The notes beneath the pieces were generated by a model. It saw only the letters and a list, made by a program, of their open reading frames with translations. It had not been told where the DNA came from and ran no database searches. From Alphaproteobacteria bacterium (GTDB lineage: Bacteria; Pseudomonadota; Alphaproteobacteria; CASFRQ01; SAAU01), in assembly GCA_009929265.1 (NCBI GenBank), contig SAAU01000002.1, forward strand, positions 14,668 to 78,667: a DNA stretch of 64,000 nt. Reading direction: 5' to 3'. Below, one piece after another: positions 25,089-28,947 of the stretch. A program made the translations under genes and the position numbers. The stretch's first letter is position 1; every line of letters begins with the position of its first letter.

Positions 25089-25793
25089 ATGAAAAAGGCT
25101 TTAAGCATGACAAAAACAACCCTCCTTCCCACCGAAGAAATCCTTGAAAAGTGTATCTCTATTTATACCCTTTTTTACAATAACCGCCTTATCTTAAAAC
25201 AGGCGCCAGAGCTTCATCTTTCCTTGGAGGAGGTTGAGAAAATTTCCACCCCTGAGGCTTATGAGCTTTTCCGTTCTGATTTAAGGAAGGTTTCCCTTTT
25301 CCTCCTTGGGATTCATTCAGAACAAGCTGTTGATATTGATCGTATGTTTCAAGGGCTTAAAACCTACTACAAGCCAGAGGATTTTTGGTATAGCGTCCTG
25401 CTTGATTATATTAAAGTCGTTTATGAAGAGGAAAAACTAGCCCTTGATGAAAAGCGATTCGACCTAATGGAAAAAACAGAAGATCTGTTGAAAGAGCTTC
25501 AAGGAAAAGAAAAAAAACGCCAAGGAATTATTGACACCATTACATTGGCTATTAAAGAAAAAGGATTTCCCGTGGACGGAGAGCGCCTTTTTAAAAATTA
25601 CTTAACGTTATACGCAACGAATCCTAATTTGGCTTGGAAAACGTTGACCTCTAATCCGTGTTATTTTGCTCCCTTAAAAACCGTTGGTGAAAAGGGAAAT
25701 TTTCTGATTCGCCCAAGAGAAGCCCGCCGAATTAACAAAAATTTGGCCTCTTTTTTCAAAAAGTTCAAGATTAACACCGAATTAAACAATTAA
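25089..25793 (+). CDS. Hypothetical protein family A, copy 1 (234 aa)
   Basis: It is paralogous to 27649-28293 (LPTEE[IL]LEKCI..YTLFY.NR.ILKQAP.LHLSLE). It has no signal peptide. Confidence 0.5.
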   Translation: MKKALSMTKTTLLPTEEILEKCISIYTLFYNNRLILKQAPELHLSLEEVEKISTPEAYELFRSDLRKVSLFLLGIHSEQAVDIDRMFQGLKTYYKPEDFWYSVLLDYIKVVYEEEKLALDEKRFDLMEKTEDLLKELQGKEKKRQGIIDTITLAIKEKGFPVDGERLFKNYLTLYATNPNLAWKTLTSNPCYFAPLKTVGEKGNFLIRPREARRINKNLASFFKKFKINTELNN

Positions 25794-25856
25794 CTGGACA
25801 AAAAAGACCCTTTTTGCTATTTTTAAACAAGCAAGAAGTTAGAAAAGGATATTCTG

Positions 25857-27611
25857 ATGAGCGAAACTTTATTTGACATTAAAAGAAAAACGGACTTTAT
25901 CACGCGGGCATCCCTTGCCGAAGAAGCGAACGCCTTACGCGCTGTTTTGTTTGAAAAAATTCCTTTAGAAGATGTCCAAAAGTTTATCCTTGAAACGGGA
26001 CAAGCGGAGGATATTTTAAGCTCTGACGAAGAAGTGTTTAAGACGGCTTCCTCTCTTTTTACAGAAGAAATGATTGATGCCTATAAAAAAGACAACGGCG
26101 ATACCCTTTCCCCGATTGAACGATTTAACTACCTCAACAATGTTATTCAAAAAGGGCAAGAGGATATTCCCTTGTCCAAAAGACAAAAGGAAAGCTTTTT
26201 CACCGCGCTAAGTGATGAGCAAAACGCGTCGGCTTTTCTCATTAAAAATGCGCCTTTTAATGAGATTTTTTCCTTTTTCAAAACAGATAATAAACCGCAT
26301 TCTGCTGTTAATGTTTTGCGTGCGTGTGATAAAATCTTACCTGACGAGAAAAAGGACGCCATTCAAGAGGTTAACGAAAACGGATTTGACCTTCAAACGT
26401 ATATGTCTTTCCTTGAAAACAAAGGAACAGAGAGCAAAACGCCGCTTGATAAGCAAGTCCAATATGACCGCCAATCCAAAGACAGAATGCTAAATGAAAG
26501 TCTCTCCTCTTTGGTTGAAAACAATCAAATCTCTTATGAGGAAGGGTCCTTAATTGCAAACAAAATGACGAAAAGTGGCTCTGTCGAGGCCTTAAACAAA
26601 GAAGAGCTTCAACTTATTTCCCAACTGATGGCCGATGCTATTCAAGAAAAGGTAGCAAAAGGCGAAATGCCAGAGGAGAAAAGCGTCCTTTTTGCCCAAA
26701 AACTAGACGAGATTCACAAAAGCAATTTAGCCGATTTTTACAAGGAGGCGATTCTTGATAACACAGGAACCGTTTCTCAAAAGCTTTTAGATGAAGAGAC
26801 GCCCGCCAAAATAACGGAAGGGACAGACCTTCAATCAGAGGGACCTGTTTTGAAAAATCAACGGCAAAATCCATTTATTACAAACAGAAAATTCGATCCT
26901 TTATGGAAAGAGGCCGTTGCAGAGGTTTCCGATATTTTAGACTCGGCTTTTAAAGCTTCCACCGTTGAAGATGCTGCGGTTGACTTCTCTTTGAGACTTT
27001 TAGTCACACCTGTGACATCTGTCACAAGAGTTTTGACTCATTTCCAAAAACAGATACAAGAAAATATGAAGTATCGTCATGAACAAGAGGCTAACGCCCT
27101 TTCTCAATCGATAAAAAAAGAAGGGCATGACGCCAAATCGACAGCAAAATATATCCTTGAAGAGCTCGAAAAGAAAGGGCTTACCCCGCCTTCAAGCTCT
27201 CGTCGATTCTCAAAAAAGGGACGCTTTATTGAAAAGGCTTTCTCTTTTCAGCAAAAAAGAAATAGAGAGATAAACACAGCCACAAAAGATGTGATTTTGG
27301 ATGCCATGGGACGGGCTTCTGTTTCGGGCTCTATGGCAAAACGCAAGGCTTTTAATTCTTTCCTACAAGAGGTGCAAACGCAATACAATTCATTCTTAAA
27401 ATCTAAAAAACTCAATAATCCGGACCTTATCAAGTCTATAAATTCTTCTGAAGAGGAAAAAGAGAAAGTCAACCTTATGTCCAAGAAAAGTGAAGAACTT
27501 AAGGCACAAAAACAGACCATTCAGAAAAAGGGACAACAACTCAGTGCCAGCAAAGGAAATACGGGAGCAAACCCCTTCTTTTCTCAAAAAAATCAGGGGA
27601 AAGTGGCTTAA
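25857..27611 (+). CDS. Hypothetical hydrophilic protein family B, copy 1 (584 aa)
   Basis: Its C-terminal roughly 190 aa are paralogous to 28366-28947. The protein is charged, with no TM segment or signal peptide. It is a candidate secreted effector. Confidence 0.5.
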   Translation: MSETLFDIKRKTDFITRASLAEEANALRAVLFEKIPLEDVQKFILETGQAEDILSSDEEVFKTASSLFTEEMIDAYKKDNGDTLSPIERFNYLNNVIQKGQEDIPLSKRQKESFFTALSDEQNASAFLIKNAPFNEIFSFFKTDNKPHSAVNVLRACDKILPDEKKDAIQEVNENGFDLQTYMSFLENKGTESKTPLDKQVQYDRQSKDRMLNESLSSLVENNQISYEEGSLIANKMTKSGSVEALNKEELQLISQLMADAIQEKVAKGEMPEEKSVLFAQKLDEIHKSNLADFYKEAILDNTGTVSQKLLDEETPAKITEGTDLQSEGPVLKNQRQNPFITNRKFDPLWKEAVAEVSDILDSAFKASTVEDAAVDFSLRLLVTPVTSVTRVLTHFQKQIQENMKYRHEQEANALSQSIKKEGHDAKSTAKYILEELEKKGLTPPSSSRRFSKKGRFIEKAFSFQQKRNREINTATKDVILDAMGRASVSGSMAKRKAFNSFLQEVQTQYNSFLKSKKLNNPDLIKSINSSEEEKEKVNLMSKKSEELKAQKQTIQKKGQQLSASKGNTGANPFFSQKNQGKVA

Positions 27612-27648
27612 ACTTTTCTAAAATTTAATTAAAAAAAGAGAGGGGAAA

Positions 27649-28293
27649 ATGGCAGAGAAACTATATCTTCCGACAGAAGAACTTCTTGAAAAATGCATTG
27701 CCCTTTATACTCTTTTTTACGAAAATCGTCACATCTTAAAACAGGCTCCAAAACTTCATCTTTCTTTAGAAGATGTGGCAAAAATATCTTCTGTTGAACA
27801 ATACCACCTTTTTCGAACAGATTTAAGAAAAGTCTCTTTGTTTTTGCTTGGGCTTCCCTTTCACAAACCCGTTCAAGTCAGTCAAATGGTGCAAGCCCTT
27901 CAAATTCACTATAAGTCAGGAGATTTTTTATATAATTTTTTGCTAGATTATATCAAAATTGAATATGAAGAAAATCAGATTTTGCTTAATGAAACTTTTA
28001 TGGAAAATAAGGAAAATCAAGAAAGATGGCAAAAAAATATTTCTTTTAAGATTAAAGAAAAAGGCTTCCCTGTAGATGCTGATTTACTTATTAAAAATTA
28101 TTTGACTTTTGCTTCAAAAAATCCTTCTTTCGCAAGGAAAATCCTGTTTTCTAATCCATGCTATTTTGCCCCTTTAAAAACGGCTGATGAAAAAGGAAAT
28201 ATTCTGATTAAACCTAAAGATACTCTTAAAAGAAATAAAGCTTTAGCGTCTTTTTTAAAGGACTTACTTCTTTCATCAAGCAAAAATACTTGA
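27649..28293 (+). CDS. Hypothetical protein family A, copy 2 (214 aa)
   Basis: It is paralogous to 25089-25793. Confidence 0.5.
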   Translation: MAEKLYLPTEELLEKCIALYTLFYENRHILKQAPKLHLSLEDVAKISSVEQYHLFRTDLRKVSLFLLGLPFHKPVQVSQMVQALQIHYKSGDFLYNFLLDYIKIEYEENQILLNETFMENKENQERWQKNISFKIKEKGFPVDADLLIKNYLTFASKNPSFARKILFSNPCYFAPLKTADEKGNILIKPKDTLKRNKALASFLKDLLLSSSKNT

Positions 28294-28365
28294 CAAAAAA
28301 ATAAAAGGGCGCTACTTTTGAAGATATAAAAAAGGTTCTTCCTAAAAAACGAAAGGAAAACACTT

Positions 28366-28947
28366 ATGGCAAAAATAAAAAATCCTTCTCCTGTTTTAAC
28401 GAACCAGCGGTTAAATCCCTTTCTTGCAACAAGAAAGCCCGATCCCCTCTGGAAAGAAGCTGTTGCTGAGGTTTTCGATATTCTAGACGCCGCTTTCAAA
28501 GGATCCACCGTTGAAGATTCTGCGATTGATTTTTCGTTACGGCTTTTGGTTGCGCCTGTGACATCTGTCACGCGGTTTTTGAATTATATCCAAGGACAAA
28601 TTCAAAAAAATATGGATTATCGTCATGAACAAGAAGACGGTCATCTTACAAAATCTATTGAAAAGCCGGGGCACGATGCCCTTTCAACGGCGCAATTTAT
28701 CATCCAAAATTTACGGATGAATGGATTGACGACTCCGCCACATGCTGGACGATTCTCCAGAAATGGGCGCTTTATTGAAAAAACATTCTCTCCTTTGCGG
28801 CGTATAGATACTCAAAGAAAAGACCTTATTCAGGATGCTCTCTTGGATGCCATGGGAAGAGCTTCTGTCTCAAATGGGATGTCAAAAAGAAAAATTTCAA
28901 GAGCTTTTCTTCAAGAAGTGCAACATCACTATAATAGGATTGTTTAA
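28366..28947 (+). CDS. Family B copy 2, N-terminally truncated (193 aa; matches B1 from about residue 340 onward)
   Basis: The shared block is NQR.NPF..RK.DPLWKEAVAEV.DILD.AFK.STVED...DFSLRLLV.PVTSVTR. Confidence 0.45.
   Translation: MAKIKNPSPVLTNQRLNPFLATRKPDPLWKEAVAEVFDILDAAFKGSTVEDSAIDFSLRLLVAPVTSVTRFLNYIQGQIQKNMDYRHEQEDGHLTKSIEKPGHDALSTAQFIIQNLRMNGLTTPPHAGRFSRNGRFIEKTFSPLRRIDTQRKDLIQDALLDAMGRASVSNGMSKRKISRAFLQEVQHHYNRIV

Follow-up and report, generated by a model that had tools for sequence, protein, structure and literature searches.

What do two orphan genes do when they are duplicated in tandem and placed among the genes of a type IV secretion system (T4SS)? The question is raised by a locus in a 64,000-nucleotide stretch of DNA (hereafter the window) from an Alphaproteobacteria bacterium (GenBank assembly GCA_009929265.1, contig SAAU01000002.1, positions 14,668 to 78,667). 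The locus holds two copies of a two-gene cassette, A1-B1 and A2-B2, with locus tags EOM53_01245-01260 in a metagenome-assembled genome (MAG) at NCBI, whose contig is 187,713 bp long. We have found that the cassette is a tandem duplication of genuine coding genes, that its B proteins are modular, that it is restricted to a single lineage and that it adjoins T4SS genes. A preliminary description of this DNA had proposed that the two pairs encode T4SS effectors and their partners. It is possible, and we put it forward tentatively, that B1 and B2 are substrates of the adjoining system and that A1 and A2 are their cytoplasmic partners.

Duplication and modular structure of the cassette

It is evident that A1-B1 and A2-B2 are paralogous and were duplicated as a unit, as had been claimed. 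A1 and A2 share 54% identity over 227 aa (E = 5e-81), and B2 aligns with B1 at 60% identity without any gap (E = 2e-79), similarities far beyond chance. The synonymous distances (dS) between the paralogues are saturated, 2.4 for A1/A2 and 1.8 for the B core/B2, and these similar values in the A and B halves are consistent with duplication as one unit. Judged by these distances, the duplication of the A-B unit is old, and it is tandem.

The relationship between the two B proteins differs from the one first described. B2 had been taken for the C-terminal roughly 190 aa of B1, but it matches an internal core (residues 325-514 of 584), and two parts of B1 are missing from it, namely the N-terminal 324 aa and the C-terminal 70-aa tail. 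Thus, of the earlier pattern of a conserved C-terminus and a lost N-terminus, the loss of the N-terminus is borne out, whereas the C-termini are not conserved. The core common to B1 and B2 contains the conserved motifs DPLWKEAVAEV, DFSLRLLV-PVTSVTR, YRHEQE, GRFIEK and LDAMGRASVS. The tail of B1 has a net charge of +8 over its last 50 aa and contains a second NPF tripeptide. The isoelectric points of the two proteins are 5.9 (B1) and 9.9 (B2).

The boundary between the N-terminal domain and the core of B1 is also visible in a more distant strain deposited at ENA (ERZ18242372). There, B1 is represented by two open reading frames (ORFs) of 314 aa and 283 aa, separated through a 48-bp tandem duplication with an in-frame TAA. 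The duplication sits exactly in the linker where the homology with B2 starts, and a further 21-bp duplication lies nearby. Coverage at the split is about 4.5x, and the split is either a real polymorphism or an assembly error. Whichever is the cause, the linker is repeat-prone and the domain boundary is real. The idea that B1 arose as a fusion of A and B, or through an internal repeat, was ruled out, because hhalign comparisons of A, the N-domain and the core show no relationship among them. The AlphaFold 2 model of B1 (predicted local distance difference test, pLDDT, 38.5) is unusable for fold comparison.

NPF tripeptides are found at 26868-26876 (B1 aa 338-340), 27570-27578 (B1 aa 572-574) and 28414-28422 (B2 aa 17-19). 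The one at the start of the core is invariant across all four B sequences, whereas the relative has KPF in place of the one in the B1 tail. The window ORFs, 19.8 k residues in all, contain six NPFs, three of them in B1 and B2; the expectation from composition is 0.086 per 1000 aa. Such tripeptides are bound by the EH domains of eukaryotes; for NPF/EH-domain motifs in bacterial effectors, no precedent turned up in a literature search.

None of the four proteins has a transmembrane segment or a signal peptide in a hydropathy scan (maximum 19-residue Kyte-Doolittle value 0.8-1.2), in agreement with the earlier statement that the B proteins lack signal peptides. A1 and A2 have no lipobox either and are soluble. 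The AlphaFold 2 model of A1 is all-alpha with nine helices (pLDDT 71, predicted TM-score 0.47). Fold searches of the PDB and of the viral models of BFVD gave no significant match (best E = 0.36, query-normalised TM-score at most 0.25, and at most 0.2 in the PDB), and TetR-like and bromodomain-like matches were dropped as insignificant.

The arrangement of the four genes points to a common transcription unit. The start of A1 is most likely at 25107 (228 aa), because this start is given in the NCBI annotation, is preceded by a Shine-Dalgarno (SD)-like AAAGG and coincides with the first residue of A2 in the alignment; no comparable motif precedes the ATG at 25089. SD-like sequences also precede B1, A2 (GAGGGG) and B2. 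The intergenic gaps within the cassette are 37-72 bp, with A2 starting 37 bp past the stop codon of B1. Ahead of A1, a promoter scan found the sigma-70-like site TTGAAA-16-TAAAAT at 25047-25074 (10/12 match, the best in the region). The region at about 24985-25107 is about 98% identical to that of the related strain, whereas the adjoining lipoprotein gene is only 66-71% identical, which suggests a constrained regulatory region. The cassette is closed by a hairpin at 28993-29023 with a 12-bp stem containing five G-C pairs, followed by CTTCTTTTTTT, so that the terminator noted previously is indeed present. One conserved promoter region, SD-like sequences, short gaps and one terminator make a single four-gene operon, A1-B1-A2-B2, the simplest reading of the sequence. 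The proteins that it encodes are soluble and alpha-helical.

We have also observed a 15-nt element, TTGTCAAGTATTTTT, at 25018-25032 (+), 28282-28296 (-) and 24193-24207 (+, 2 mismatches); its reverse complement includes TTGACA. These sites lie upstream of each of two lipoprotein genes next to the cassette (oriented for the reverse strand) and, inverted, at the stop codon of A2 and the A2-B2 spacer (oriented for B2). The window has five matches with at most 2 mismatches, versus 1.0 expected. The element may be a common -35 region or operator, giving B2 a promoter of its own.

Restriction to one genus and purifying selection

Homologues of the cassette proteins are extremely rare. No match for any of the four proteins was found in Pfam, NCBIfam, PHROGs or PADLOC, and the empty Pfam and NCBIfam results bear out the earlier remark that they have no recognisable domain. 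In a word-indexed search of 5.8 billion proteins, B1, A1 and B2 retrieved only themselves, their paralogue and one related strain. An exhaustive phmmer search of 1.84 billion cluster representatives with B1 gave two matches only, the N-domain ORF of the relative and the B2 orthologue. Back-translated pattern scans of the GTDB species genomes for A and B and a tblastn search of the PLSDB plasmids gave none. Among the JGI metagenomes, A had no match and B was found on one 2.3-kb contig of the same organism. Sequence and profile searches of the PDB gave nothing significant for the cassette proteins; a match of syntaxin-1 to the N-domain of B1 (E = 0.026, alignment accuracy 0.70) was put down to composition. 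By these searches, A and B are orphan families restricted to one uncultured alphaproteobacterial genus. No homologue came from outside the genus, be it from genomes lacking T4SSs or from a housekeeping complex, the two kinds of match that the preliminary description had regarded as damaging to its proposal.

Within the genus, a second NCBI MAG (PHI50_01635-01650) encodes all four proteins, with about 99% identity. In the ENA strain, the locus lies on two abutting contigs that overlap by 48 bp in window coordinates. One of them (L002) carries the lipoprotein genes, A1 and B1, and the other (L001) carries A2, B2, a 371-aa ORF and the genes from glgA onward to VirB11. The cassette genes are therefore conserved in three assemblies. 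The copy number of the A/B pair is constant among them, and copy-number variation in related genomes, a possibility raised earlier, was not observed.

We then compared the window with the orthologues on L002 and L001 by the Nei-Gojobori method. The ratio of nonsynonymous to synonymous distances (dN/dS) is 0.08 for A1, 0.12 for the N-domain of B1, 0.24 for the core plus tail of B1, 0.30 for A2 and 0.12 for B2. The values for two neighbours, glgA (0.055) and VirB11 (0.013), are below those of all parts of the cassette. All four cassette genes, including the short B2, are maintained coding genes under purifying selection, and their evolution is somewhat faster than that of the neighbouring housekeeping genes. 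These results bear on whether B2, or the whole second copy, is a functionless pseudogene in decay, as the absence of both ends of B1 from B2 might imply. The 193-aa ORF of B2 is intact in the two NCBI MAGs, the ENA strain, the JGI contig and a Logan contig, and it has its own SD-like sequence. B2 is also 95% identical to the copy in the ENA strain, which together with its low dN/dS indicates that it is maintained rather than a decaying fragment; the pseudogene explanation is effectively refuted.

The B1 region diverges more between the strains than its surroundings. Its dS is 0.39-0.43, versus 0.10-0.17 in the flank (2.5-4x background), and its DNA identity is 69-92%, versus 94-98% in the downstream flank. 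This divergence suggests allelic exchange, diversification or accelerated turnover. In the relative, the B1 core and B2 share 0.90 identity in one 60-nt segment (within L002 3961-4080 versus L001 878-1000), compared with 0.78 in the window genome, at most a weak hint of gene conversion between the two.

Possible substrates of an rvh-like secretion system

The cassette sits between islets of T4SS genes. The placement given previously, between the virB6 cluster and glgA, holds, but two lipoprotein genes intervene on one side and a membrane-anchored 374-aa ORF on the other. The upstream islet consists of four tandem VirB6-like paralogues, recognised by TrbL/VirB6 Pfam matches below the curated cut-off, mutual BLASTP matches (E = 1e-46 to 4e-12) and transmembrane segments. 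Downstream of the cassette are the 374-aa ORF, glgA, a SPOUT methyltransferase and a GT2 glycosyltransferase. Further downstream follow VirB11, a 2,427-aa VirB10, VirB9-SPOR, two VirB8, several unannotated ORFs and one weak VirB5-family match. The system, like the lineage as a whole, is very divergent, and all its Vir proteins fall far below the NCBIfam cut-offs. The rvh system of Rickettsiales is marked by proliferated VirB6, duplicated VirB8, VirB9 and VirB4, and genes scattered in islets (PMC2653234). The window has four VirB6-like paralogues and two VirB8, distributed over two islets, together with a single VirB9, and no VirB4 was seen in it. The neighbouring T4SS appears to be a divergent VirB-type system resembling rvh. 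No relaxase was found in the window scans, and Rfam/tRNA scans found only a tRNA-Gly at 12.1 kb (13 kb from the cassette) and no mobile-element signature. In view of the absence of a relaxase and of mobile-element markers, the system looks like a chromosomal, effector-type (non-conjugative) T4SS.

In this setting, our tentative proposal is that the B proteins would be substrates of the adjoining chromosomal rvh-like T4SS. The common core of about 190 aa would be the constant module, recognised by the machinery or by the partner. B1 would be composed of this core, a 324-aa cargo domain joined through the repeat-prone linker, and the basic tail rich in Q and K. Each A protein would bind the core of its cognate B protein as a cytoplasmic partner, since A2 is retained, under selection, beside the core-only B2. 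Instead of a classical chaperone, A may be a holder, a regulator or a partner that is itself secreted, comparable to the "metaeffectors" of Legionella, which regulate effectors. Secretion, binding between A and B and a host target are what we infer here. Among the grounds first offered for effectors and partners, the duplication and the T4SS adjacency stand, and the lineage restriction, the fast evolution and the modularity of B1 are in keeping with them; a shared C-terminus and a chaperone-like A do not stand, and the basic tails carry little weight.

The position of the cassette could also be explained if A and B were lineage-specific accessory components or regulators of the T4SS, such as cytoplasmic assembly or gating factors, co-regulated with the lipoprotein/VirB6 operon. 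The cassette and that operon have in common a highly conserved 126-bp regulatory region from which they diverge, the system itself is very divergent, and several uncharacterised ORFs lie inside its islets. We nevertheless regard this explanation as rather improbable. Parts of a secretion machine are usually conserved beyond a single genus, whereas no relatives of A and B could be detected; B1 is broken by a stop codon in one strain; and duplication combined with domain loss is atypical of structural subunits.

As candidate effectors with adjoining partners, the cassette proteins can be compared with several known systems. The Bep effectors of Bartonella arose by local duplication and combine a conserved BID module and a charged tail with variable N-termini (PMC6509941, PMC8714903). 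The cassette resembles them in belonging to an alphaproteobacterium with a VirB-type T4SS, in its locally duplicated genes and in the combination of a helical module of about 100-190 aa with a positive tail. It differs in that B has no BID match or FIC domain and in that the shared module of B1 is internal and followed by the 70-aa tail. In the ancestor of the Beps, the VbhA/VbhT FicTA module, the effector gene is likewise preceded by a small gene for its partner; the antitoxin there (FicA/VbhA) has about 60 aa, as against 214-228 aa for A. In Agrobacterium VirE1/VirE2, the partner gene likewise comes first and is followed by a soluble protein of substrate size (VirE2, about 60 kDa; B1, 584 aa), again with a VirB-type system, but VirE1 is acidic and about 65 aa long, whereas A is basic and much larger, and no VirE2 Pfam match was found. 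The Xanthomonadales X-Tfe/X-Tfi pairs share with the cassette a variable N-domain with a conserved C-proximal module, adjoining partner genes and, in B1, a Q-rich tail, and duplicated lipoprotein genes lie next to the cassette. However, no XVIPCD or toxin domain was matched, A is not a lipoprotein and the T4SS is rvh-like rather than X-type; the window lipoproteins, for their part, are encoded on the opposite strand, in 2 or 3 copies irrespective of the number of A/B pairs. The effector-metaeffector and IcmS/IcmW systems of Legionella also involve lineage-specific orphans and adjacent, co-transcribed genes of which one encodes a protein that escorts or acts on the product of the other, but they belong to a T4BSS (Dot/Icm), IcmS/IcmW are small and acidic, and there is no homology to A or B. 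Judged by sequence, membership of the cassette in the Bep, VirE or XVIPCD families or among the classical chaperones is not supported. At best, it would join a known class, that of lineage-specific, duplicated and modular T4SS effector genes.

The preliminary description had also seen a fit with polymorphic toxin/immunity pairs, which we find to be poor. In polymorphic toxins the N-terminus is constant, the C-terminal toxin varies and the immunity gene lies directly downstream. The tandem array of the cassette, in which a shortened copy with a partner of its own comes after the full-length gene, is reminiscent of CdiA-CT/CdiI and Rhs loci, but the polarity is reversed, no trafficking domain is present and the partner lies upstream. 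More broadly, the pairs might be toxin-immunity or toxin-antitoxin units, either interbacterial T4SS toxins with cognate immunity proteins, an orphan module in a polymorphic toxin locus, or a module similar to FicTA with the antitoxin gene upstream. The tandem two-gene units with a shortened second copy, the unusual divergence of the B1 region between strains and the upstream partner, which recalls the antitoxin-upstream modules ancestral to Bartonella effectors (PMC5675462), are in favour of such units. We consider them improbable all the same. No toxin, immunity, PAAR, Rhs, LXG, XVIPCD or defence domain was found in Pfam, NCBIfam or PADLOC searches; it is the N-terminus that varies and the core that is constant; A2 is kept beside a B2 devoid of any candidate cargo domain; A is large and not periplasmic, unlike the X-Tfi lipoproteins; and A1/A2 and the B cores are similarly diverged, with no hypervariable toxin tips.

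Several results weigh against the proposal that the B proteins are T4SS substrates. BID, XVIPCD and eukaryote-like domains were not matched in the cassette proteins; for BID in particular, when all PDB chains were searched with a profile of the B core, no match was better than E = 1, and Pfam likewise had none. At their extreme C-terminal ends the two B proteins are unlike, so that a signal there, if there is any, is not common to them. The basic tails stressed earlier are real, with a net charge of +5 in the last 30 aa of both B1 and B2, but the two tails are not homologous and such a charge is not distinctive: at least +5 is reached by 15 of the 45 window ORFs of at least 150 aa, including SecA, VirB11 and the GT2 glycosyltransferase, and A1 (+6) and A2 (+5) have it as well. 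The A proteins, first pictured as chaperone-like adaptors, are basic (isoelectric points 8.8 for A1 and 9.1 for A2) and 214-228 aa long, unlike the small (about 60-170 aa), acidic secretion chaperones such as VirE1, IcmS/IcmW and type III secretion system class I chaperones. The nonsynonymous distances are unmatched within the pairs (A1 0.013 versus B1 core 0.094; A2 0.075 versus B2 0.024). A VirD4 coupling protein was not seen in the ORFs scanned, those of the window up to 57.7 kb. Finally, orphan status is weak evidence, orphans being frequent in the window: more than 12 ORFs of at least 150 aa have no Pfam family above the curated cut-off in the scans run, and many of these are also empty in NCBIfam.

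These observations could also describe a lineage-specific cytoplasmic two-protein module, regulatory, nucleoid-associated or structural, that is adjacent to the T4SS by coincidence. None of the secretion-related features is specific to the cassette proteins, A is basic and all-alpha, and many other window genes are likewise orphans. The housekeeping genes for glgA, the SPOUT methyltransferase and the GT2 glycosyltransferase also lie between the T4SS islets, and the dN/dS values of 0.08-0.30 are those of ordinary purifying selection. On the other hand, genus restriction, duplication, domain gain or loss and fast evolution are more typical of interaction or accessory genes, and no DNA-binding or enzymatic domain was detected in the Pfam, NCBIfam and PDB searches. 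We consider a cytoplasmic module somewhat unlikely, though plausible enough to be kept in mind.

Should B1 and B2 prove to be T4SS substrates, they would offer a first way into the role of the rvh-like system in an uncultured lineage known only from metagenomes. For effector modularity, too, the cassette would amount to a natural experiment, with a core-only B2 beside a core-plus-cargo B1, each with its own partner, and this side-by-side arrangement would make the minimal recognition module easy to define experimentally. A bolder version, which we think improbable, is that the B core is a new T4SS translocation or recognition module, functionally analogous to BID and XVIPCD but unrelated to them in sequence, in the rvh-like system of an uncultured and probably anaerobic alphaproteobacterium, that A is its dedicated basic, all-alpha partner, in which case the rvh-like class of T4SS would have its first described adaptor/substrate pair, and that the NPF at the start of the core might engage EH-domain proteins of eukaryotic endocytosis. 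If the B proteins are not secreted, the cassette would be one more duplicated orphan pair, of local interest only.

Neighbouring genes and other features of the window

The coordinates of the cassette and of the other features of the window are collected in Table 1.

Table 1. Positions of the cassette genes, their parts and neighbouring features in the window
Feature	Position	Strand	Remarks
A1	25089-25793 from first ATG (234 aa) or 25107-25793 (228 aa)	+	EOM53_01245
B1	25857-27611	+	584 aa
B1 N-terminal domain, aa 1-324	25857..26828	+	missing from B2; 3' end is a tandem-repeat-prone linker
B1 core, aa 325-514	26829..27398	+	module common to B1 and B2
B1 C-terminal tail, 70 aa	27399..27611	+	K/Q/E-rich, not in B2
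A2	27649-28293	+	214 aa, EOM53_01255
B2	28366-28947	+	193 aa, EOM53_01260; core-only paralogue of B1
Conserved promoter region	24985..25088	+	upstream of A1, common to the divergent lipoprotein gene
Terminator-like hairpin	28993..29033		T-runs on either side, 3' of B2
Two tandem paralogous lipoprotein genes	23469-24131 and 24378-24962	-	lipobox LTGC; divergent from the cassette, toward the VirB6-like array
Four tandem polytopic VirB6-like paralogues	15893..23369	-	496, 421, 808 and 726 aa
VirB10 homologue	35078-42361	-	2,427 aa; C-terminal TrbI; about nine beta-flower repeats (PF21785/PF21784) and RHS/DUF3659-like fragments before TrbI
Four consecutive ORFs	45810-50159	-	616, 369, 234 and 222 aa; no significant family match
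LptF/LptG permease (aa 6-358) with LptD N-terminal and LptD domains (aa 418-1016)	54457-57699	-	1,080-aa ORF
NrdD, anaerobic class III ribonucleotide reductase	708-2774	-	

The two lipoproteins are 78-83% identical to each other and have no Pfam or NCBIfam match. The genes repeat with a period of 903 bp, the copies of the intergenic sequence being 95% identical. No other genes in the region vary as much: amino acid identity to the relative is 57-78% for the lipoproteins and 95-99.7% for the flanking genes. The relative has three copies (L002 2-1997), as against two in the window.

The VirB10 homologue of the relative is called by the gene finder as a 199-aa TrbI ORF and a 2,205-aa ORF (L001 7499-10721). 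The four consecutive ORFs without a significant family match lie between the VirB8 pair and the weak VirB5-family ORF (50170-50937), and the one of 222 aa has a single weak Pfam match below threshold. These ORFs may be lineage-specific T4SS components or more effector candidates.

The 1,080-aa Lpt ORF is either an unusual fusion of inner- and outer-membrane lipopolysaccharide transport proteins or the result of a missed stop codon or frameshift. The presence of NrdD in a genome with an rvh-like T4SS hints at an anaerobic, possibly protist-associated lifestyle.

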